DNA from: Armatimonadota bacterium | GTDB lineage: Bacteria > Sysuimicrobiota > Sysuimicrobiia > Sysuimicrobiales > Humicultoraceae | DNA: 22,274 nt | Direction: 5' to 3' | Assembly: GCA_037446215.1 (NCBI GenBank) | Contig: JBBIJB010000024.1 | Coordinates: forward strand, 8,301-30,574 | Part shown: positions 9,003 to 22,123 of the stretch, in pieces | Layout: each line of letters begins with the position of its first letter | How positions within the stretch are numbered: position 1 is the first letter of the stretch | Translations under genes and position numbers: made by a program | The notes under the pieces: generated by a model | Told to the model about the DNA's origin: nothing | What the model saw: the letters and a program-made list of their open reading frames with translations, nothing else | Databases searched by the model: none

Positions 9003-9467
9003 CTACCCGGCGGGATCCTCGGTGGAGACCCTGCGGGGAACGCGCCCGGTGCCGGCATCCTCCAGCCCCTGCTCCAGGGTGACCCACGGCAGCGTAGCGC
9101 ACTTGACGCGCACCGGGAACTTGCTGACGCCCCGCAGCGCGACGATGTCGCCTAGCTCCTCCGAGGGCTCCTTGCCGTGCATCATAAGCTTGAACTGAGC
9201 GGCAAGCTCGCGAACCTCGTCCACGCTCTTGCCCTTGACCAACTCCGTCATCATCGAGGTCGAGGCCTGGCTGATCGAGCAGCCGCGCCCCTCGAACCGC
9301 GCCTCCTCGACCTTACCCTCGCGCACACGTAGGTAGAGCGTCAGCTCGTCGCCGCACAGCGGGTTGACACCCTCCACCGCGACGTCCGCCGGCTGAAGGA
9401 CCCCGCGGTTGCGGGGGTGAGAGTAGTGATCGAGTATCACGTCTCGGTAGAGGTCTTCGATCCCCAC
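9003..9467 (-). CDS. sufU: SUF system sulfur-transfer protein SufU
   Basis: LYRDVILDHY, NPLCGD, GCSISQAS and RVKCATL motifs; directly downstream of sufS. Confidence 0.95.
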   Translation of the reverse strand: MGIEDLYRDVILDHYSHPRNRGVLQPADVAVEGVNPLCGDELTLYLRVREGKVEEARFEGRGCSISQASTSMMTELVKGKSVDEVRELAAQFKLMMHGKEPSEELGDIVALRGVSKFPVRVKCATLPWVTLEQGLEDAGTGRVPRRVSTEDPAG

Positions 9468-9484
9468 GATCCCCTCCCGGCCCT

Positions 9485-10726
9485 CTAGTCGGACCCGGCC
9501 CCGCGGCCGAAGACCCTCCGGACCTTCAGCAGGCCCTCGATCAGGGCGTCGGCGTCCTCGCGGGTGTTGTACAGGTAGAAGCTCGCCCGAGCGGAGGCCG
9601 AGATCCCGAACCTCCGGTGCAGGGGCTGCGTGCAGTGGTGGCCTGCCCGTACCGCGATCCCCTCGGCGTCCAGCACCTGGGCGATGTCATGCGGGTGCGC
9701 CACGTCCATGGTGAAGCTGACGGCACCTCCCCGCTCCTGTGCCTCGAGCGGGCCGTAGACCGTCACCCCCGGAACGTCGCGCAGTCGTGAGAGCGCATAC
9801 GCAGTCAGGTCGCGCTCGTGGGCGGCGATCGCGTCGAGACCGACCCGCTGCAGGTAGTCCACAGCCGCTCCGAGCGCGATGCAGTCGCCTATGTTGGGCG
9901 TTCCCGCCTCGAACCTGTGGGGAGGGCCCTTGAAGGTCGACGAGTCGAGCCCCACGCTGACGATCATCTCGCCGCCGCCGTGGTAGGGAGGCATCGACTC
10001 CAGCAGGTCGTAGCGCGCCCAGAGTCCGCCCGTGCCTGTGGGCCCCAGCATCTTGTGGCCGGAGAAGGCGAGGAAGTCCGCCCCCAGGCCTGGGGCGTCC
10101 ACTCCCTGGTGGGGCACGCTCTGTGCCGCGTCGACCAGGACCAGGGCGCCGACGGCGTGCGCCGCGTCCGCTATCTCCCGCACGGGGTTGACGGTGCCCA
10201 GCACGTTCGACTGGTGTGTGAGCGCGACCAGCTTCGTGCCTTCGGTCAGCAACCGATCCAGTGAGCCGAGATCGAGACGACCCGCATCGGTGACGGGCAT
10301 GTACCTGAGCCTCGCTCCCCGCTCCGCGGCCAGCAGCTGCCAGGGCACTATGTTGCTGTGGTGCTCCATTTCCGTCAGAACGATCTCGTCGCCCGGCCCG
10401 ACATTGGCGCGGCCCCATGCCGAGGCAACCAGGTTGATCGCCTCGGTCGTCCCGCGCGTGAAGACCACCTCCGCGGGCTCGGAGCCGCCCAGGAATCCGG
10501 CGAGCTTGGCGCGGGCCCCCTCGTAGCGGGCCGTCGCCTCCTCGGCGATGCGGTAGATCCCCCTGTGCACGTTGGCGTTGAAGTCGTGGTAGAACTCGAG
10601 CAGCGCCTCCAGGACCGGAGTAGGCTTCTGGGAGGTCGCGGCGCTGTCCAGGTAGACTAGCGGCCTCTCCCCCTCCCTGCCCCTGAGCAGGGGGAAGTCG
10701 CCTTTGATGCGCGCGCCAAGCTCCAT
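9485..10726 (-). CDS. sufS: Cysteine desulfurase SufS (class II, PLP)
   Basis: YLDSAATSQKP, ANVHRG, EHHSN, SGHKMLGPTG (PLP Lys), RAGHHC (catalytic Cys). Confidence 0.96.
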   Translation of the reverse strand: MELGARIKGDFPLLRGREGERPLVYLDSAATSQKPTPVLEALLEFYHDFNANVHRGIYRIAEEATARYEGARAKLAGFLGGSEPAEVVFTRGTTEAINLVASAWGRANVGPGDEIVLTEMEHHSNIVPWQLLAAERGARLRYMPVTDAGRLDLGSLDRLLTEGTKLVALTHQSNVLGTVNPVREIADAAHAVGALVLVDAAQSVPHQGVDAPGLGADFLAFSGHKMLGPTGTGGLWARYDLLESMPPYHGGGEMIVSVGLDSSTFKGPPHRFEAGTPNIGDCIALGAAVDYLQRVGLDAIAAHERDLTAYALSRLRDVPGVTVYGPLEAQERGGAVSFTMDVAHPHDIAQVLDAEGIAVRAGHHCTQPLHRRFGISASARASFYLYNTREDADALIEGLLKVRRVFGRGAGSD

Positions 10727-10742
10727 AGACCGCGCTCCTGCC

Positions 10743-11087
10743 TCAGCTCCTGTGGGGCATGCCCTGCCCCGGCGCAGGCGTCGGCGAGACGAAGACCTCC
10801 TCGCCCTCCACCTTCACCTGGTAGGTGCTGACCGGCCGGGCCGCGGGCAGCGAGAGCACGCGCCCCGTGGGGATGTGGAACCTGGATCCATGCCTGGGAC
10901 ATACGATCAGATCGCCCGTGACGGGTCCCTCCGAGAGCGACTGGACCTCGTGGGAGCAGGTGTCGTCGATCGCGTAGAATGTGCCCGAGAGGTTCACGAT
11001 CGCGATCCTACGCCCTCCCAACACCACCTGCTTGGCTGCGCCCGGTGGAATCTCGGCCGTGCTGGCGGCCCTCACGAACTCGTCCAT
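10743..11087 (-). CDS. Rieske-type [2Fe-2S] ferredoxin
   Basis: CSH...CPRH Rieske ligands followed by GSRFHIPTG; 114 aa; lies between sufD and sufS. Confidence 0.92.
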   Translation of the reverse strand: MDEFVRAASTAEIPPGAAKQVVLGGRRIAIVNLSGTFYAIDDTCSHEVQSLSEGPVTGDLIVCPRHGSRFHIPTGRVLSLPAARPVSTYQVKVEGEEVFVSPTPAPGQGMPHRS

Positions 11088-11088
11088 C

Positions 11089-12402
11089 TCAGATCATCTT
11101 CTCCGCTATGCGTGCCCGCAGGTACGCCCTCAGGCGACCCTCCGGGATCCGGTCCAGGATGTCCGCAAAGAACCCTTCCACGATCATGAACGCAGCCCTC
11201 TTGCGCCTTATGCCGCGGCTCATCAGGTAGAGGATCTGCTCCTCGTCGAGGCGGCTGGTGGCGGAGCCGTGGCTGCACCGCAGGTCGTTGGCCATTATCT
11301 CGAGCATAGGCGTGCTTTCGGTCCGCGCGCCCTCGGAGAGGATCAGGTTCCGGTTGGATTGGAAGGCATCGGTCCCCTGCGCGCCCTCCTCCACGCGGAT
11401 CAGCCCGGAGAACAGGCCCCTCGCCGAGTCCTTCACGGCGCCCTTGTACGACAGGTCGCTCCTGGTGCTCCTCGCGCCATGGTGCTGCAACGTGTGCAGC
11501 TCCACGTGCTGCGCGCCGCTTCCGAAGTAGACGCCCAGCATCTCCGCCGACGCGCCCGGGCCCAGCAGCCTGGATTCGATCTCGGACTTCGCGACACCCC
11601 CGCCGAGTGTGGCCACCAGGCTGGAGAAGGAGGCGTCGCGCCCTATCCCTGCACGGATCCGGCTGCCTACCTCCCACAGGGGCTGGCCCCACTCCTGCAC
11701 GACCGCGTGGCGAACCCGGGCACCGGGTCGGGCGACTATCTCGGTGTCCCCCGAGATCAGCCCGCGCCGGCCGGCGGCTACAGAGGTGCACAACTCGACG
11801 AGTGTGACGCCGCTGCCCTCCTCTGCGACGAGAAGCGTGCGCGGGAACGCCGCGATACCCGCGGCCCCCAGCCACCGGTGAGAGAGCAGCGGCAGCGCCA
11901 CCTCGACTCCGCTCGGCACGTAGAGGAACGTTCCCCCTGACCAGAGCGCGGCCCGCAGGGCTTCGAACCTGTGCGTAGGAGACCGGTCGAAGGCGCCCAG
12001 GAGGTGTTCGCTCACCAGATCTTGGTGCGTCTTGAGGGCCTCCGACAGCCCGCAGAGGATCACGCCCCGGCCGGATGCGGGGGCTTCTAGTTCGGCGAGC
12101 GGCTCTTTCCCGTTCATGTGCACGATGAGGCCTGCGCGCGCCTCCGGGTCCCTGAGCAGAGGCCCGAGATGCTGCGGAGGGTCCGGCAGAGCCGTGCCGT
12201 CTGGAAGGGCGAGGGCCCCCAGATCCAGGCCGCCCAGGTCGGTGCGGCGCCACCGCTCAGGGTGGGTCACCGACGGCGGAGGGAGCCTCTCGAAGGCTTC
12301 CCATGCCTCGAGCCGCGACTCCAGCGCCCACGAGGGCTCGCCCAGCCGGGAGCTCAGCTCCTCGACCGAGGCGCGGCTGAGCCCGACGCCCGCCCTAGCC
12401 AA
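11089..12402 (-). CDS. sufD: Fe-S assembly protein SufD
   Basis: [47 protein letters not shown] start overlaps the sufB stop. Confidence 0.93.
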
Positions 12403-13801
12403 CCGAGCCCTCCATCTCGAGGGCGACCAGGCGGTTGAGCTCCACCGCGTACTCGAGGGGGAGCTCCTTGACGACCGGCTCGATGAACCCCCTCACGATC
12501 ATGTTCATCGCCTCGTCGCCCTTGATGCCGCGGCTCATTAGGTAGAAGAGCTGCTCGTCGCTGACCTTCGAGACCGTGGCCTCGTGAGTGACCGAGACGT
12601 CCTGCTCGTCGATCTCCATCCGCGGATAGGTGTCCGACCTGCTGTGCTCATCCAGGATCAGCGCGTCGCAGCGCACGGCGCAGCTGCTCCCCCTGGCCTC
12701 TGGGTAGATCTTCACCAGGCCGCGGTACCCTGCGCGGCCGCCGTCCTTGGCGATCGACTTGCTCACGACGGTCGAGCGGGTGTGAGGCGCGGCGTGGATG
12801 ACCTTGGTGCCCGGATCCTGGTGCTGGCCGCTTCCCGCGAAGGCCACCGAGAGTATCTCCGCGCGGGCGCCGGGCTCCATCATGTAGACCGAGGGATACT
12901 TCATCGTCACCTTAGAGCCCAGGTTGCCGTCTACCCACTCCATCGTCGCGTCGCGGTAGGCGACCGCCCTCTTGGTCACCAGGTTGTAGACGTTCTTCGA
13001 CCAGTTCTGGATGGTGGTGTAGCGGCAGCGCGCGCCCTCCTTGACGATGATCTCCACTACGGCGCTGTGGAGCGAGTCGGTGGTGTAGACGGGCGCCGTG
13101 CAGCCCTCCACGTAGTGGACGTACGATCCGGGCTCGCAGACGATCAGCGTCCTCTCGAACTGACCGGCCTTCTCCGCGTTGATGCGGAAGTACGCCTGCA
13201 GAGGTATGTCCACCTTGACCCCGGCGGGCACATACACGAAGGAGCCCCCCGACCAGACAGCGCTGTTGAGGGCGGCGAGCTTGTTGTCCTCGGGGGGAAC
13301 GACCGTTCCGAAGTACTCACGCACGACGTCGGGGTGCTGGCGCAGCGCCGAGTCGGTGTCCAGGAAGATCACGCCGAGCTTCTCCCACTCCTCCTTGAGG
13401 TTGTGGTAGACGGACTCGCTCTCGTACTGGGCACCCACCCCCGCCAGGAACTTCTTCTCCGCCTCCGGGATTCCGAGCCGGTCGAAGGTGCGCTTAATCT
13501 CCTCGGGCACCTCCTCCCACGTGTGCCCCTTCCTGTCGGTCGGCTTGAGGTAGTAGTAGATGTCGTTGAAGTCGATCTGGCCGAGATCGGCGCCCCATCG
13601 CGGCGTCGGGCGCTTCTGGAAGTGATCGAGCGAGTGAAGCCGGAGCGCCCTCATCCAGTCGGGCTCGCCCTTCATCGCCGAGATCATCTCGACGATCTCG
13701 CGATCCAGTCCCTTGCGGGCCTTGTAGGCGTAGTTCTCGGGATCGCGAAAGCCCCACTTGTAGCTGTCCAGGTCTATCCCGAGAGGGTTGGACGGTGCCA
13801 T
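12395..13801 (-). CDS. sufB: Fe-S assembly scaffold SufB
   Basis: [53 protein letters not shown]; 468 aa. Confidence 0.97.
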
Positions 13802-13847
13802 CTGCCGGTCTCCAGGCGGTCTCTCGCGTCGAAGGTCTCGGCCGTCG

Positions 13848-14678
13848 CTAGTGGGTTACCCAGAACACCTTGCCCGCGCGTCGCACGGCCCCATCCTGCC
13901 TGACCTCGGCCGCGACGACCTCGAACTGCTGCCGGATCCCCTCGTAGCCCTGACGCTCCAGCTCGTCCGCCAGCTCCGGGCCTCCCGAAACGACTATCCG
14001 GCCGTCGTACAGGATGTGCACTTGCCCGGGAGGAATGAACTGGAGGATCCGCGAGTAGTGGGTGATCAGGAGCATCCCCATCTGGCCCGAGGCCTCCCCG
14101 TACATCTGCATCACGCCGTCCGCGACGACCTTGAGCGAGTCGATGTCGAGCCCGGAGTCGGTCTCGTCCATGATGGCGACGGTCGGCTCGAGCAGGGCCA
14201 TCTGCAGGATCTCGGCCCGCTTCTTCTCGCCCCCCGAGAACCCCTCGTTGAGGTAACGGCCGACCACCGCAGGGTCCATCCTCAGCATCTCCATCCTCGC
14301 CCTGAGGAGCTTCTGGAACTCGGCCGCGGGCATTAGCTCCTGCTCGTAGCCCCTTCGGGCCGAGACGGCGGTGCGCAGGAAGTTCGCCATCGACACACCC
14401 GGAACGCTCACCGGGTACTGGAACGCGATGAAGAGGCCGCGGCGGGCCCGCTCGTCGGGGGCCATGGCCAGCAGGTCCTCGCCCCGGTAGAGGACCTCTC
14501 CCCCGATAACCTGGTAGAAGGGGTTGCCCATCAGCACGTTGGCCAGGGTGCTCTTCCCGGACCCGTTCGGGCCCATGATGGCGTGTATCTCCCCGGCTTC
14601 CATGGCCAGGTTCAGCCCCTTGAGGATTACCTTGTCCGCGACCTGCACGCGCAGATCACGGATCTCCAGCTCAGCCAT
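13848..14678 (-). CDS. sufC: Fe-S assembly ATPase SufC
   Basis: Walker [23 protein letters not shown] signature, Walker [18 protein letters not shown] upstream of the start. Confidence 0.97.
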
Positions 14679-17032: not shown

Positions 17033-18013
17033 GTGGCCGGGATCTCCTACCGGGATGCCATCCGCACGACGCTGATCGAGGAGATGGACAAGGACCCCTC
17101 GGTGGTCCTCATGGGTGAGGACATCGGGCTCTACCAGGGGACGTTCCGGATCACCGCGGACCTCCTCGAGCGCTTCGGCAGGCAGCGGGTCATAGACACG
17201 CCGATATCCGAGCTTGGCTTCGTGGGCGCCGCGATCGGCATGGCGATGCTGGGCCTCCGCCCTGTCGTCGAGGTCATGACTTGGAACTTCTCCCTCCTGG
17301 CGCTCGACCAGATCGTCAACAACGCCGCCAAGGTCCGCTACTTCTCCGGAGGACAGGTGGACGTGCCCCTGGTGATAAGGGGTCCCAACGGCGCCGGCGT
17401 TCAGCTCTCTGCCCAGCACTCCCAGAGCCTGGAGGCTCTCTACGCCCACTTCCCGGGGCTGCGGGTGGTGGCGCCGGCCACTCCGGCGGAGGCGACAGGG
17501 CTGCTGCGTACCGCCATAAGGGGAAAGGACCCCGTTATCTACCTCGAGAACGCCGCCCTCTACAGCATGAAGGGCGAGGTGCCGGAGTCCGACCACACGA
17601 TACCGTTTGGATCGGCCGAGGTGGTGAGGCGTGGGAGCGACCTCACCGTCGTCGCCTACAGCAGGATGGTCCACCTCGCACTCGACGCCGCGCGGCGCCT
17701 CGCCGACGAAGGAGTGGAAGCCGAGGTGATCAGCCTGAGGTCGCTGCGCCCCCTCGATGAGCGGACGATCGTGGAGTCGGCGGCTAGGACTCACCGGGCG
17801 GTAGTGGTCCAGGAGCAGTGGCGCCCGTACGGGGCCGCGGCCGAGATCGCGGCAGTAATAGCCGAGGGCGCGTTCGACCTCTTGGACGCGCCGGTGGCAC
17901 GAGTGACGGGAGCAGACGTTCCGATGCCCTATGCGAGGAACCTCGAGCTTTTGGCGCTGCCGACCTCCGACGCAGTAGTCGAGGCGGCAAGGGGCGTCCT
18001 CTACCGGAAGTAG
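17033..18013 (+). CDS. pdhB: Pyruvate dehydrogenase E1 beta subunit
   Basis: MGEDIG, DTPISELGF, EVMTWNF, DQIVNNAAK, RGPNG, AQHSQ, DVPMPYA. GTG start 3 nt after the pdhA stop. Confidence 0.9.
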   Translation: MAGISYRDAIRTTLIEEMDKDPSVVLMGEDIGLYQGTFRITADLLERFGRQRVIDTPISELGFVGAAIGMAMLGLRPVVEVMTWNFSLLALDQIVNNAAKVRYFSGGQVDVPLVIRGPNGAGVQLSAQHSQSLEALYAHFPGLRVVAPATPAEATGLLRTAIRGKDPVIYLENAALYSMKGEVPESDHTIPFGSAEVVRRGSDLTVVAYSRMVHLALDAARRLADEGVEAEVISLRSLRPLDERTIVESAARTHRAVVVQEQWRPYGAAAEIAAVIAEGAFDLLDAPVARVTGADVPMPYARNLELLALPTSDAVVEAARGVLYRK

Positions 18014-18057
18014 GCCCGCGGGCCCGGGCACGCATACCAGAGTCGGAGGCGAAGGCC

Positions 18058-19233
18058 ATGGCCGAGGTGATAATGCCGAAGATGGGTGACGCCATGACCG
18101 AGGGCCGGGTCCTGCGCTGGCTCAAGCAGCCAGGGGATGCGGTCGCCAGGGGCGAGCCGATCGCGGAGATCGAAACCGACAAGGTGAACATCGAGATAGA
18201 GGCCGAGTGGGACGGAACCCTGGCGAAGATAGTCGTGTCCGAGGGAGAGACGGCCGAGGTGGGCGCCACTATCGCCCTGATCGCACGCCCGGGCGAGGCT
18301 CCCAGGGAGGAGGCCGTTGAGATCGCGCCCCCGGCGAAACCGGAAGAAGGACCTGAGGAGGGCGCAGTCCGAGCGTCGCCCCTCGCCAGGCGGCTGGCGC
18401 GGGAGCGAGGCCTCTCGCTTCGGGCGATCGAGGGGACCGGGCCGGGCGGCAGGATCACCAGGTCCGATGTCGAGGCCGCGGGAGAGGACACCGCCCGGCA
18501 GCCCGAAACCGCTGTCCGGGCCCCACGCGGGAAGGCGGTAGACCAGCCTCTCTCACGGATGCGCCAGACGATAGCCCGTCGAATGACGGAGAGCAAGCAG
18601 CAGGCGCCTCACTTCTACCTGACCGTTTCGATCGTGATGGACGCGGCCTTGGAGCTTCGCGACAGGCTCAACGCCGATCTTGCCGACGAGGAGAGGGTTT
18701 CCGTGAACGACCTCGTCGTCCGGGCCTCGGCCCTCGCACTGGCGGCACACCCACAGATCAACGCCTCGCTCGAGGGCTCATCGGTGCGGCTCCACGGCGA
18801 CGTCAACATATCCGTGGCTGTCGCCCTGCCCGAGGGGCTGATAGTACCCACGCTTTACGGGTGTGACCGCAAGCCGCTGCTGCAGATAGCGCGGGAGTCG
18901 CGGGCCCTGGTGGAGCGGGCCCGCGGGGGTCGCCTGAAGCCGGAGGATCTCACCGGAGGGACGTTCACCGTCAGCAACCTGGGGATGTACGACGTCGAGA
19001 CGTTCATCGCCATACTCAACCCGCCCCAGGCGGCGATCCTGGCCGTCGGAGCGGCCGCGCAAAGGGCGGTCGTCAGGGGGGGCGAGATCGTTGCCGGTGC
19101 GGTGATGCAGGCGACCCTCTCCGCCGATCACCGCGTTACGGACGGCGCCCAGGCCGCGGCCTTCCTGCGGGATGTGAAGCGGCTGCTAGAGAACCCGATC
19201 TGGCTAGTAGCGGAGCGCGGCGGGGACGGCTAG
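18058..19233 (+). CDS. pdhC: Dihydrolipoamide acyltransferase (E2), single lipoyl domain
   Basis: Start re-called to ATG 18058 (MAEVIMPKMG) after GGAGG; lipoyl motif ETDKV; E3-binding ASPLARRLA...GTGPGGRIT; catalytic DHRVTDG. Confidence 0.92.
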   Translation: MAEVIMPKMGDAMTEGRVLRWLKQPGDAVARGEPIAEIETDKVNIEIEAEWDGTLAKIVVSEGETAEVGATIALIARPGEAPREEAVEIAPPAKPEEGPEEGAVRASPLARRLARERGLSLRAIEGTGPGGRITRSDVEAAGEDTARQPETAVRAPRGKAVDQPLSRMRQTIARRMTESKQQAPHFYLTVSIVMDAALELRDRLNADLADEERVSVNDLVVRASALALAAHPQINASLEGSSVRLHGDVNISVAVALPEGLIVPTLYGCDRKPLLQIARESRALVERARGGRLKPEDLTGGTFTVSNLGMYDVETFIAILNPPQAAILAVGAAAQRAVVRGGEIVAGAVMQATLSADHRVTDGAQAAAFLRDVKRLLENPIWLVAERGGDG

Positions 19234-19261: not shown

Positions 19262-20164
19262 CTAGTGGACCCGGGTCTCGGCGGCTCCCCCCGGGACCTC
19301 GCAGTACCAGGCCGCGAGCTTCGCGAAGGCGATCAGCTGCGGCAGCCCGCCGCGCACGGCACTCAGGATGCGCTCGGCGGAGTGCACGCCCGCAGACGCC
19401 AGGAGCTGCCAGCGCATCTCCACCTGTGACGCCAGGTGCAGCGCCAGGTCCATCGGGACGAGGCCCGCGTCGGCGATGGGCAGGAAGACCTCCCAGCGGC
19501 GCGCGGGGCGCTCCATGTCGAAGATGTTGAGCATCGCCTTGGCGATCCCGGTGGCCGCGCCCGCGGCGTTGCTGAACCACCCGATCGCCTGGCCAATCCT
19601 CTCGGGATCGCGCGCGACCGGCTCCATGTCCCTTGTGGCAACCTCGAGAACGGCGGCGGACGCCATGATGCGGCTGAGCCGCCATCCGATGCGGATGGGG
19701 TCCAGATACCTGGGCGGTTGCGGAAGGACGTAGCCGGAGGTGGCTGTCACTGCCAGCCCAAGAGATCGGGCCTGCGTTATGGCCTCCCTGGACTCCTCCA
19801 GCAGGGTCGCGCGCTCCGCCTCTATGCGCGCCTTGGATGCCTCGACAAAGGCCCTCCGGCAGGCCGGATCGCTCTCAATCAACAGCGACCCACCCTCGAG
19901 GATCTCATGGATCACAGGGAGGATGTGGGTGTTGAGCGCGAAGGGCATCAGTATGCCGGGCTCCCCGCCCAGGGGGCTCTCGTCGGAGAGATGCTCCATG
20001 TAGTCGCGGATGTCGTCCTCGGAGGCCTTCTCCGGGAAGACCAGCCCGACCTCGATGTCGGTGTCCGGGAAGCTCGGGCCGTTCCCATACCTGCCGTACA
20101 GGTAGACCGCAGCGACCTCGCTGGGCCCGGCGAAGTACTCCCTGAGGGCCGCTATCGCCCGCAC
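19262..20164 (-). CDS. Hypothetical protein: fused MntA-like nucleotidyltransferase and HepT/DUF86-like HEPN domain, both with degenerate active sites
   Basis: GTG start with GGGGGGAG upstream. aa 1-125: AVYLYGR-x10-DIEVGLVF...LN...I..GSLL..D...R..F follows the MntA pattern. aa 153-288: LD..I..RL......D......A..IA......P....EVF..I...GLV...LA..L...MRWQLLA follows the HepT pattern. Confidence 0.7.
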   Translation of the reverse strand: MRAIAALREYFAGPSEVAAVYLYGRYGNGPSFPDTDIEVGLVFPEKASEDDIRDYMEHLSDESPLGGEPGILMPFALNTHILPVIHEILEGGSLLIESDPACRRAFVEASKARIEAERATLLEESREAITQARSLGLAVTATSGYVLPQPPRYLDPIRIGWRLSRIMASAAVLEVATRDMEPVARDPERIGQAIGWFSNAAGAATGIAKAMLNIFDMERPARRWEVFLPIADAGLVPMDLALHLASQVEMRWQLLASAGVHSAERILSAVRGGLPQLIAFAKLAAWYCEVPGGAAETRVH

Positions 20165-20207
20165 GACACTCCCCCCATCCTAGCGACTCTTCCGCCCCGA
20201 CCCAATG

Positions 20208-21629
20208 CTACCCAACCGATCGCGACTCGGGAAGCCCCGGGATCACCCATCCGACCGCCTCCTCGATCACGCGCGCCACGGCCAGGACGAGGCCTTCGCT
20301 GAACTCCCTGCCGGCGAGCTGCACGGCCACGGGCAGTCCGGCCGAGGTGGCCCCGGCCGGCACCACTACGGCGGGAAGCCCTGCCAGGTTGTAGATCCGT
20401 GAGAACCGGCCCAGTCTGCTGCGGATCTCGGGCCAGCCTTCGCCGTCCGGATCTACCTCAGAGATCAGAGGGGCGCCGCCTGGCAGCGCGGGCCCGAGCA
20501 GCACGTCGCACTCCCCTAGGATGTCGGCCAGCTCGGCTCGGACGGCCCTCGCCACCTCTTCCGCGCGGGCCAGCTCATCGGCCGTGAGCCCGGCCCCTCT
20601 CTCCAGCAGGGTCCTGACATCGCGACCGTAGTAGCTCTCCTTGCCCGGATACGCGGCCCGGTGGAAGGCCGCCGCCTCCGCCAGCAGGAGTGCCACCTGT
20701 GCCTGCCCTGCTGCCTCTGCCGTACGCAGGGTGACCGGCCTGACGGTCAGGCCGGCCCTCTCGCAGGCCAGCGCGGCCACTTCCACCGCGGAGGACACGG
20801 CCGGGTCCAGGTCGGCCTCAAACAGCGGGCCTACAAGGCGGCCGACACGCGCGCGCGGCCGGCGAGCCAGGACCGCGGCCTGGTAGGCGTCGACGGGCCG
20901 GCGGCCGCTCGCCGGGTCTTGTGGGTCGAACCCCGCGATCGCCTCGAGCATGAGTGCAACGTCCTCGACCGTCCTGGCTATGGGGCCGACCGTGTCGAAG
21001 GACGAAGCGAGGGGAAGGACTCCGGCTCTGCTGACCCTGCCGAATGTGGGCTTGAGGCCGACGACACCACACAGGGCCGCGGGGATGCGAATCGATCCAC
21101 CGGTGTCGGTGCCCAGGGCGCCCGCGGCCACTCCCGCCGCGACGGCGACCGCGGAACCGCCGCTCGATCCTCCCGCAACGCGGCTCACGTCCCAGGGATT
21201 GCGAGGGGTGCGCCCGTGCGGGTTGACGCTGGTCATCCCCAGGGCGAACTCGTGCAGCGTGGCGGTCCCCAGGACGATCGCCCCGGCGGACTCCAGGCGG
21301 GCGACCACCTGCGCGCTCACGGCCGACGGTGCCTCCTGCAGGAACGAAGTCCCCGCAGTCATCGCGACCCCTTCCACCGCGATGATGTCCTTGATCGCAA
21401 CCGGCACGCCGTGGATAGGGCCCCGGGCTCTCCCTTCTCCCAGTTCCGCGTCACGCGCGCGCGCGGCGGCTAGTGCCCTGTCGGCCAGCAGGCTCACGTA
21501 TGCGCAGACCTCGGGATCTACCGCCTCGATCCGCCGCAGGTAGGCCGACACCACCTCCACGCAGGTCAGCTCACCCTGCCCTATCTGCCGCGCCAGGGCG
21601 GACGCCGACTGGGAGGTTATCTCACACAC
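20208..21629 (-). CDS. Amidase-signature family enzyme (GatA-like fold, substrate unknown)
   Basis: HGVPVAIKD (catalytic Lys), GGSSGGS, GTDTGGSIRIPA, GLKPTFG, GLPVAVQL. Start re-called to GTG 21629, just after the lysC stop; exact start uncertain. Confidence 0.9.
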   Translation of the reverse strand: MCEITSQSASALARQIGQGELTCVEVVSAYLRRIEAVDPEVCAYVSLLADRALAAARARDAELGEGRARGPIHGVPVAIKDIIAVEGVAMTAGTSFLQEAPSAVSAQVVARLESAGAIVLGTATLHEFALGMTSVNPHGRTPRNPWDVSRVAGGSSGGSAVAVAAGVAAGALGTDTGGSIRIPAALCGVVGLKPTFGRVSRAGVLPLASSFDTVGPIARTVEDVALMLEAIAGFDPQDPASGRRPVDAYQAAVLARRPRARVGRLVGPLFEADLDPAVSSAVEVAALACERAGLTVRPVTLRTAEAAGQAQVALLLAEAAAFHRAAYPGKESYYGRDVRTLLERGAGLTADELARAEEVARAVRAELADILGECDVLLGPALPGGAPLISEVDPDGEGWPEIRSRLGRFSRIYNLAGLPAVVVPAGATSAGLPVAVQLAGREFSEGLVLAVARVIEEAVGWVIPGLPESRSVG

Positions 21630-21634
21630 TCCGT

Positions 21635-22123
21635 CTACCCGGTGGGCGCCTCGAGGTCGAAGGCCTTGTGGACCGCACGGACTGCCCGCTCTACGTCTGA
21701 CGCGGCGATCACACATGAGATCTTTATCTCCGAGGTACTGATCATCTGGATGGCGATCCCTTCCCCGGCCAGGACGCCGAACACCGTGGCGGCTACGCCC
21801 GGGTTGCTGATCATCCCCGCTCCAACGACCGAGATCTTCGCGACGTCATCCCCCGCGACGACCTCGCCGCACCCGATCTGCCGGCCAACGGCGGCAGCCA
21901 GCTCCAGGGCGGCGGCCGCATCGGCCTTGGTCACGGTGAAGGAGATGTCCGACCTCTCACTGTGGCCGGCCGCGTGCACTATAACATCCACGTTGACATG
22001 GCGCTCGGCCAGCGCCGAGAACAGCCTGTGGACCGCGCGGGGATCGTCGGGCAGGTCCCGGATCGTGATCCTCGCCACGTTCCTGTCGTGTGCGACACCT
22101 GTGACCAGACGCACGCGCTCCAC
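21635..22123 (-). CDS. Probable aspartate kinase beta (regulatory) subunit from an in-frame internal start, 162 aa
   Basis: GGAGGAGG (22139-22132) lies 8 nt before an in-frame GTG at 22123, giving MERVRLVTGVAHD at the kinase/ACT boundary. Confidence 0.65.
   Translation of the reverse strand: MERVRLVTGVAHDRNVARITIRDLPDDPRAVHRLFSALAERHVNVDVIVHAAGHSERSDISFTVTKADAAAALELAAAVGRQIGCGEVVAGDDVAKISVVGAGMISNPGVAATVFGVLAGEGIAIQMISTSEIKISCVIAASDVERAVRAVHKAFDLEAPTG

Follow-up and report, generated by a model that had tools for sequence, protein, structure and literature searches.

A gene on the minus strand of a 22,274-nucleotide stretch of DNA from an Armatimonadota bacterium (Sysuimicrobiota in the GTDB; contig JBBIJB010000024.1, positions 8,301 to 30,574; hereafter the window, meaning the whole stretch) encodes a single chain in which an MNT domain is followed by a HEPN domain. 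The gene is best read as the vertically inherited descendant of a type VII MntA-HepT toxin–antitoxin (TA) module that has been fused into one chain. The family to which it belongs is probably one of domesticated, non-toxic MNT-HEPN proteins, because it combines the architecture of the fused TA protein FhepTA and a HEPN half of the HepT/DUF86 type with the loss of the RNase histidine and of the AMPylated tyrosine, and because it behaves like a core gene passed on by vertical inheritance. TA modules are usually regarded as selfish, mobile and dispensable. In this case, a module whose TA ancestry is still readable has turned into a core gene, present in single copy and strongly conserved across an entire uncultured phylum, which gives it the look of a tamed selfish element that has taken on a housekeeping role.

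The open reading frame (ORF) runs through 300 codons without an internal stop, as a preliminary description of this DNA, made from the sequence alone, had stated. Every residue named in that description is present in the translation: G24-R25, D36-I37-E38 and I71-L-M-P-F75 in the N-terminal half (N-half), the Pro-rich segment at aa 136-152, and R251-WQLL-A256-S257-A258 in the C-terminal half (C-half). An AlphaFold2 model built on a 128-row alignment reached a predicted local distance difference test score (pLDDT) of 90 and a predicted TM score (pTM) of 0.90, with uncertainty only at aa 139-144 and 294-300. Comparison of the two halves with known folds supports the proposed single-chain MntA-HepT architecture. 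Foldseek matched the N-half to MntA chains (7bxo_G and 6m6u_G; TM 0.67-0.70, probability 1.00), and structural alignment with VIA-align matched it to HI0073 (Z 8.2) and to the MNT protein 8xeh_E (Z 8.0). The C-half superposes on HepT SO_3166 (5yep_B) with a Z of 16.7 and a root-mean-square deviation (rmsd) of 1.8 Å over 133/133 residues, model residues 155-287 lying on chain residues 1-133; in Foldseek the same pair gives a TM of 0.85 with a probability of 1.00. The cyanobacterial HEPN toxin 7ae2_A (Z 15.6) and B. subtilis YutE (1ylm_B, Z 14.4) are further VIA-align matches of this half.

Sequence profiles recover the same two families at lower scores. The Pfam Polbeta model PF18765 covers aa 7-100 with an E-value of 1.6e-5 and 25.4 bits in hmmscan, against a cut-off of 26.9 bits, and rises above that cut-off, to 28.1 bits, in a six-frame search of the genome; at E-values up to 10, Polbeta and NTP_transf_2 are the only Pfam matches. 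The NCBIfam models for MntA (NF047752; E 8e-4, 19.2 bits, aa 15-108) and HepT (NF047751; E 0.015, 15.2 bits, aa 166-251) both give scores far below their 60-bit cut-offs. The HepT/DUF86 model PF01934 found no match in a Pfam scan of the window protein. It is passed by the C-halves of five orthologues (23.9-26.9 bits, cut-off 23.5), and six further orthologue C-halves reach it at E-values of at most 1e-3, which adds support for HepT ancestry at the level of sequence.

The superposition on HepT is gapless, so that HepT residue i corresponds to residue i+154 of the fused protein. Y104 of HepT, the tyrosine that becomes AMPylated (PMC7641770), therefore falls on A258, and the arginine and histidine of the RX4HXY RNase motif correspond to R251 and A256. 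All conservation counts given here are based on 177 unique sequences of the family. Position 256 is occupied by Thr (136), Ala (18), Gly (11), Ser (11) or Leu (1), while position 258 carries Ser, Gly, Ala, Thr or another residue, and never Tyr. The absence of the catalytic His and the acceptor Tyr, proposed initially for this one protein, thus holds in 177/177. Without a catalytic His and an acceptor Tyr, the HEPN half would not be an RNase toxin and would not be switchable by Tyr-AMPylation. Other residues of this half are invariant, with R158, W161, R162, R165, K209, R219, R222, R223, W224, E249, R251, W252, R265 and R271 each present in 177/177; W161 aligns with HepT N7 in the same register. 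A different histidine, H261 (window 19382-19384), occurs only in the window's own clade (13/177) and forms an R-x9-H arrangement, which is outside the Rx4-6H range.

The distribution of the gene is that of a core gene. In a set of 94 genomes of the phylum Sysuimicrobiota/CSP1-3, comprising one order and 7 families, 88 contain a match, each with one full copy and no internal stop. The gene occurs in 53 of the 54 genomes that are at least 90% complete and in 29/31 genera. Two of the 94 genomes are unpublished (G017 and G025); leaving them out changes the tally to 86/92 and affects no claim. Profile scores cluster by taxonomic family, a pattern consistent with vertical descent. The 64 orthologous loci that were compared include Candidatus Sysuimicrobium, Fervidifonticultor, Geohabitans, Calidihabitans and Tepidifontimicrobium, genera that PMC11604079 places in Sysuimicrobiota/CSP1-3. 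NCBI labels for the metagenome-assembled genomes carrying these orthologues are inconsistent (Sysuimicrobiota 10, Armatimonadota 15, Bacillota 3, unlabelled 36), and the three 'Bacillota' loci have the coordinates of G071, G064 and G065, which belong to the 94-genome set.

A word-indexed search found at least 245 relatives, the best 120 of which are 288-324 aa long, 59-100% identical, and named in databases 'nucleotidyltransferase domain-containing protein' or 'hypothetical', labels that the present reading would correct. A filter-free phmmer search of 1.84 billion cluster representatives returned 16 matches at E-values of at most 1e-3. Seven of them are family members, of which one is full-length (50% identity) and six are fragments, and the remaining nine are MNT-only matches, mostly to standalone MNTs of 98-204 aa. 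This composition indicates that the family is compact and that no intermediate relatives are visible to phmmer. Six shorter forms were found, all of them fragments or N-halves; longer, multi-domain relatives were not found, a null result that is weak evidence. Two 148-aa database members (P0138 and P0128) stop at the domain boundary, immediately behind the conserved L147-P148. Because a stop codon replacing Q149 would produce them, they may represent split or truncated alleles.

The sequence is also maintained by selection. Across both halves, 55 of the 300 positions are conserved in at least 98% of the family. In the 25 closest pairs (dS 0.06-0.41), the dN/dS ratio by the Nei-Gojobori method is 0.03-0.33, about 0.1, and is alike in the N- and C-halves. 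Strain-level variation is available from contigs of four runs of one study, which carry nine substitutions in the ORF, seven of them synonymous, and no indels; the two non-synonymous changes, G13R and R103L, fall at variable positions. In two runs of one study, contigs span the ORF, one being identical and the other having 7 substitutions and no indel. Either set of runs may include the window's own sample, so that the spanning contigs are not independent of it. The initial view of a gene kept intact under purifying selection in a housekeeping, non-mobile setting is supported, and the gene is neither a singleton nor an artefact: the fusion and the degenerate motifs are conserved across the family.

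A decaying pseudogene, a chance ORF or an assembly error might still be considered, given that long spurious ORFs are common at high GC content (68% in the window) and that the family-model scores lie below their cut-offs. This explanation is refuted by the evidence and retains next to no probability. The GC content of the three codon positions (0.68, 0.49 and 0.89) is like that of other real genes of the window, at least 245 homologues exist, and intact orthologues are found in 88 genomes. The low dN/dS of the close pairs, the widely spread conserved positions, the confident structural model and the indel-free contigs of other runs all argue in the same direction.

Canonical HepT behaves differently in the same genomes. 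PF01934 matches above its cut-off occur in 47 of the 94 genomes, with 0-6 matches each, so that canonical HepT is patchy, as expected of TA modules. The patchy, multi-copy and mobile-linked behaviour of such modules is not displayed by the fused gene, with its one copy in 88/94 genomes and its housekeeping neighbours. No intact HepT was found in the window's own 91%-complete genome, which contains only a degraded MNT/HepT remnant (L095:1270-1602; G000:C35, about 16.6-16.9 kb). This remnant consists of an 85-aa ORF that represents the C-terminal part of an MNT without the GS..DxD motif, followed by a short HepT-like stretch with a TAG stop.

These observations bear on the suggestion, made in the preliminary description, that the protein might serve as a decoy for active HepT toxins. 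A partner acting in trans could soak up MntA activity or form inactive heterodimers with HepT, and the model suggests that a HepT-like dimer surface is kept; canonical HepT is, moreover, present in about half of the genomes of the phylum. The difference between 88/94 genomes with the gene and 47/94 with HepT, however, means that many carriers have nothing to decoy, and the genome studied here has no intact HepT. The acceptor Tyr that a decoy substrate of MntA would need is absent as well. A decoy function is therefore highly improbable, and the suggestion is not supported.

Another explanation is that the protein is still a fused TA or defence module. On this view, toxicity of the HEPN half would come from an alternative active site or from RNA binding without catalysis, and the MNT half would restrain it. 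Such fused proteins do exist. FhepTA, reported in 2026 from the Shewanella prophage CP4So, likewise joins an N-terminal MNT to a C-terminal HEPN domain of the HepT type in one polypeptide (276 aa, compared with 300 aa here; PMC13000451). A 2013 survey also mentions that, in a genome-wide screen, certain HEPN proteins proved toxic although they lack the motif (PMC3710099), and in the present family the motif arginine R251 and many basic residues are invariant. As described in PMC13000451, however, FhepTA keeps GS-x10-DxD and RxxxxH with an adjacent Tyr, auto-oligoAMPylates, has a HEPN half that is toxic once released, resides on mobile elements and joins its domains by a hydrophobic linker of 3-5 aa. 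In the family described here, the His and Tyr are missing and a conserved Pro-rich stretch of about 17 residues connects the domains; the gene is chromosomal and occurs almost throughout its phylum, and a dimer is predicted for the protein. In addition, the gene is single-copy with scores that follow taxonomic family, its neighbours are housekeeping genes with no mobile genes among them, searches of plasmid and phage collections gave no match to it, and PADLOC assigned it to 0 families, while true HepT in the same genomes is patchy and multi-copy. A surviving TA or defence role is accordingly very unlikely, and counts of TA or defence genes in Sysuimicrobiota genomes should leave this gene out.

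The domesticated reading is sharpened by a comparison with the type VII HepT/MntA system of S. oneidensis (SO_3166/SO_3165; PDB 5YEP, 6M6V and 7BXO). Both folds match the fused protein, the order is MNT followed by HEPN, and the motif Gly, the first Asp and the motif Arg occur at the same spacing. The known system is encoded by two genes and found in patchy, multi-copy, mobile modules, whereas the family forms one chain and a single-copy core gene without the RNase His and the tyrosine equivalent to Y104. In the nucleotidyltransferase (NTase) motif GSX10DXD, which comprises G27, S28, D39 and D41 in MntA, the window protein has Arg in place of the serine and Glu in place of the second Asp, giving G24-R25-x10-D36-x-E38. 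Position 25 varies among the 177 sequences (R110, Q27, T13, K9, A6, S5 and others), and the second Asp is always Glu (E38, 177/177). The third metal-binding Asp, D71 of MntA, aligns with Gly70, which is again found in 177/177; this holds both in the hidden Markov model (HMM) alignment and in an alignment with standalone MNTs. None of the seven nearest standalone MNTs has lost GS, SDxD, or the D-x-D or D of the third-carboxylate strand.

These losses do not amount to decay. G24, D34, D36, E38, G70, N78, H80 and E87 are each present in 177/177 sequences, and Thr or Ser occupies position 35 in 176/177. Because G24, D34, T/S35, D36, E38, N78, H80 and E87 are invariant or nearly so, the alignment indicates an MNT pocket that is remodelled and under constraint, not decayed. 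The initial claim that both active sites are degenerate consequently stands in part: the HEPN half has lost its His and Tyr, and the MNT half its GS serine and third Asp, but the MNT pocket as a whole is constrained rather than degenerate. In MntA, D71 is a metal ligand, Q85 contacts the adenosine of AMP-PNP, and the HepT helix-1 residue N7 lines the same cavity, while G27/S28 mutants and D39E/D41E mutants are inactive (PMC7641770). E87 of the fused protein aligns with Q85 in the HMM alignment. In two-domain NTases, the catalytic set comprises a pair of carboxylates on the DxD strand plus a third carboxylate or a catalytic base; it is incomplete in the family, as the third is absent at the D71-aligned position.

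What such a protein may do can be proposed at the level of a mechanism. We infer, tentatively and with somewhat less than an even chance of being right, a homodimer that binds a nucleotide and a metal in the remodelled pocket and uses this binding for regulation or sensing. The symmetric homodimer would be joined through the helices that carry the relic RNase motif. The nucleotide and metal would be bound in a cleft that has the MNT pocket on one side and, on the other, helix 1 of the HEPN half with R158, W161, R162 and R165, and their binding would act as a regulatory or sensing signal. The protein would then be a pseudo-NTase, or at best a very atypical NTase, without canonical two-metal nucleotidyl transfer. 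Binding without transfer is suggested because the third carboxylate and the GS serine are gone and the corresponding MntA and AadA mutants are inactive.

The dimer in this proposal comes from a two-copy structure prediction, which returned a symmetric homodimer with a score of 0.49, compared with 0.00 for the best control. Of 30 solved homomers, 20 reach the mark used for this test, as does 1 of 23 single chains. The prediction runs share at least 81% of contacts, the partner pLDDT is at least 84, and the predicted interface is the helix pair bearing the relic motif. HepT-type dimers presumably use the same surface. HEPN RNases require dimerisation for activity (PMC13000451).

The principal alternative is that the protein is an active but atypical NTase, in which D34, D36 and E38, possibly with H80, form a relocated metal or catalytic centre and the RNase-dead, Arg-rich HEPN half serves as a substrate-binding domain, like the C-domains of kanamycin NTase, AadA, GlnE and DrrA. 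Candidate substrates would then be acidic or phosphorylated molecules, RNA ends, proteins, or the C-terminal tail of the protein itself. This is a serious possibility, if a less probable one than binding alone, and the perfect invariance of D34, D36, E38 and H80 keeps it alive; N78 and E87 are equally invariant, and purifying selection is as strong on the N-half as on the C-half. An NTase joined to an inactive HEPN-like C-domain is also a known outcome of MNT-HEPN domestication. According to the 2013 survey, the RNase residues are usually missing from MNT-fused HEPN domains, which it interprets as domesticated TA systems and as the source of enzymes like GlnE, kanamycin NTase and DrrA (PMC3710099). 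Kanamycin NTase/ANT(4'), AadA/ANT(3'')(9), AAD(9), GlnE/GlnD and DrrA resemble the family in that a Pol-beta NTase is followed by a helical HEPN-type domain without Rx4-6H. In AadA, ATP lies in the interdomain cleft and the helical C-domain provides Arg and Lys to its phosphates (PMC6065190); the basic residues of the helical domain in the family would likewise be available for phosphate binding.

The arguments against activity come from the same enzymes and from MntA. D47, D49 and E87 of AadA are its three Mg-coordinating carboxylates, and the E87Q mutant cannot adenylate (PMC6065190). The family has an invariant Gly70 at the position aligned with MntA D71 and so lacks the third carboxylate that these enzymes need. 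AadA E87 is taken here to be the counterpart of MntA D71. The GS serine is also absent, and changes at GS or of D39 and D41 to Glu inactivate MntA. Whole-chain structural likeness to two-domain NTases, which could favour activity, is weak: AAD(9) gives a Z of 7.0 with 198 aligned residues, DrrA a Z of 8.2 with 237 aligned residues and an rmsd of 7.3 Å, and AadA a TM of about 0.3. The Pfam scan gave no match to the ANT or GlnE C-domain families, and the HEPN half of the family is much closer to true HepT/DUF86 than to the C-domains of these enzymes.

Several observations weigh against the domesticated, nucleotide-binding reading, or against parts of it. A D-x-E arrangement is tolerated in some active NTases, and a working catalytic centre would be as compatible as a binding site with the invariant carboxylates of one strand face (D34, D36 and E38) and H80. 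The ligand is placed by the contacts in the MntA-HepT-AMP-PNP complex (E87 on Q85, W161 on N7) and by analogy with AadA, so that the geometry of the cleft comes from alignments only. The result of the dimer prediction may reflect the model's memory of solved HepT dimers, and FhepTA is reported as monomeric, its MNT half blocking HEPN dimerisation (PMC13000451). Sequence support for the HEPN half is weak: the C-half profile finds a HEPN toxin among PDB sequences only at E = 2, which is not significant. The gene is missing from six genomes, two of which (86% and 93% complete) make up one genus of the set, and is therefore not strictly essential. Finally, the median dN/dS over all 1041 pairs with dS of 0.05-1.0 is 0.42, a weaker signal of purifying selection; the close pairs were given more weight because dS (median 0.86) is near saturation in the wider pairs of this gene, whose third codon positions have 89% GC.

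The notion of a fused MNT repurposed together with an inactive HEPN domain, which the preliminary description had raised, is not new, having been formulated in the 2013 survey (PMC3710099). Within the literature searched, supplementary files aside, no description was found of an RNase-dead fused MntA-HepT core gene in CSP1-3/Sysuimicrobiota. The domestication principle is thus known, while the HepT-type RNase-dead family, its remodelled MNT pocket, its invariant C-terminal His and its status as a phylum-wide single-copy core gene are undescribed in that literature. The family offers a concrete, testable case of the TA domestication proposed in 2013 and a natural contrast to the active fused FhepTA, with the same architecture and an opposite lifestyle. 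ESM Atlas clusters from Chloroflexota and Thermoproteota also contain single chains of about 283-294 aa with Polbeta and HepT-like parts; their feature similarity of 0.94 is a lead without alignment. Unlike the window protein, all members of those clusters carry PF01934, and for this reason they are probably still canonical.

The features of the gene and its immediate neighbours are collected in Table 1.

Table 1. Coordinates of the fused MNT-HEPN gene, its parts and adjoining features in the window
Feature	Position	Strand	Basis
Whole gene, fused 300-aa MNT-HEPN protein; GTG start, TAG stop at 19262-19264	19262..20164	minus	ORF reading; orthologues of ~300 aa
MNT (Pol-beta fold) domain with two trailing helices, aa 1-135	19760..20164	minus	Pfam Polbeta, MntA profile, Foldseek, structural alignment, predicted secondary structure
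Relic NTase motif, G24-R25-x8-D34-T35-D36-I37-E38	20051..20095	minus	HMM alignment to MntA 5yep_A; column counts
Strand aa 69-80, P-G-I-L-M-P-F-A-L-N-T-H, third-carboxylate strand of MNTs	19925..19960	minus	Alignments to MntA and standalone MNTs
Pro-rich connecting segment, aa 136-152; low confidence at aa 139-144; conserved L147-P148-x-P150-P151, then L154-D155-P156	19709..19759	minus	pLDDT, conservation
HepT/DUF86-fold HEPN domain, aa 153-290, Arg-rich	19295..19708	minus	Structural alignment, column counts
Relic of RNase motif RX4HXY, R251-W-Q-L-L-A256-S-A258; Arg kept, His and Tyr absent	19391..19414	minus	Gapless superposition, counts
Predicted homodimer interface, aa 224-275 (residues 224, 237-250, 253, 265-275)	19340..19495	minus	Two-copy prediction
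Flexible C-terminal tail, aa 291-300, with P291 and terminal H300	19265..19294	minus	pLDDT, counts
Shine–Dalgarno-like GGGGGGAG, 4 nt 5' of the GTG start (putative function)	20169..20176	minus	Read from sequence
Upstream neighbour, amidase (PF01425), ending 43 nt before the gene; not a conserved neighbour	20208..21716	minus	
Convergent neighbour, 2-oxoacid dehydrogenase E2 (longest ORF)	17818..19233	plus	Stop codons 28 nt apart from that of the fused gene

The genes of the window are all of the housekeeping kind, and mobile-element genes are absent among them. They encode lipoyl synthase, dihydrolipoyl dehydrogenase, NADH dehydrogenase subunits, the SUF operon and adenosine deaminase, as well as E1-alpha, E1-beta and E2 of a 2-oxoacid dehydrogenase; the fused gene, the amidase and the C-terminus of an aspartokinase are convergent to the latter three. 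A scan for promoters and terminators yielded nothing relevant, its sole item being one terminator-like match inside the ORF. At related loci, neighbouring genes were called with a caller based on GC content at third codon positions, as suits high-GC DNA. Among the 64 orthologous loci, an amidase lies upstream in 4, lysC lies upstream in 1, and the convergent E2 (pdhC) occurs in 20. Synteny with amidase and lysC was rejected as a conserved context on these counts. What lies upstream varies by family; among the genes seen there are GltB, LysR, a cytochrome oxidase operon, and an HTH-TPR protein together with a LuxR regulator.

The gene most often found nearby encodes a 93-aa Nfu_N protein (PF08712) and is located downstream on the same strand in 45 of the 64 loci. 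It lies within 150 bp in 25 loci, at 389 bp in 1, and at 0.7-3 kb in 19; in the 19 distant loci, the orthologue is separated from Nfu_N by the insertion of either a PASTA Ser/Thr kinase or an NtrC-like activator together with RpoN. Nfu_N was not found in the window's own genome (91% complete), and functional coupling of the fused protein to it is a lead only. One extension of the active-enzyme alternative is that an enzyme with a rewired centre nucleotidylates its own H300 or a partner such as the downstream Nfu_N protein. This is a long shot; if true, it would make the family a phylum-specific housekeeping switch born from a TA module and possibly tied to iron–sulfur (Fe-S) cluster assembly.

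The C-terminal tail deserves a separate remark. H300 is present in 177/177 sequences and P291 in 176/177, in a region where pLDDT falls below 50 (aa 294-300). None of the readings offered accounts for this invariant terminal His (window 19265-19267).

A GlnD/GlnE-like role in nitrogen control was also considered, prompted by the GltB, NtrC-like and RpoN neighbours in other families. It was dropped because neither P-II (PF00543) nor the GlnD-type domain (PF08335) was found in this 91%-complete genome. P-II is present in most control genomes.

Some smaller observations concern the adjoining genes. In one family, an amidase homologue 47-51% identical to the window amidase lies about 3.5-5 kb downstream of the orthologue, directly before GatB, and for that reason this copy is probably GatA; the window amidase has no GatB beside it. 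The longest E2 ORF overlaps the E1-beta gene (17033-18013) by about 200 nt. The true start of the E2 acyltransferase is probably near 18070, since its lipoyl domain begins there. Two genes beyond the dehydrogenase cluster, at window positions 9003-14678, lies a complete SUF-type Fe-S assembly operon with SufC, two SufB/D genes, a Rieske protein, a cysteine desulfurase and a NifU_N-type scaffold. The SufC-SufB/D block also recurs near the orthologue in other families.

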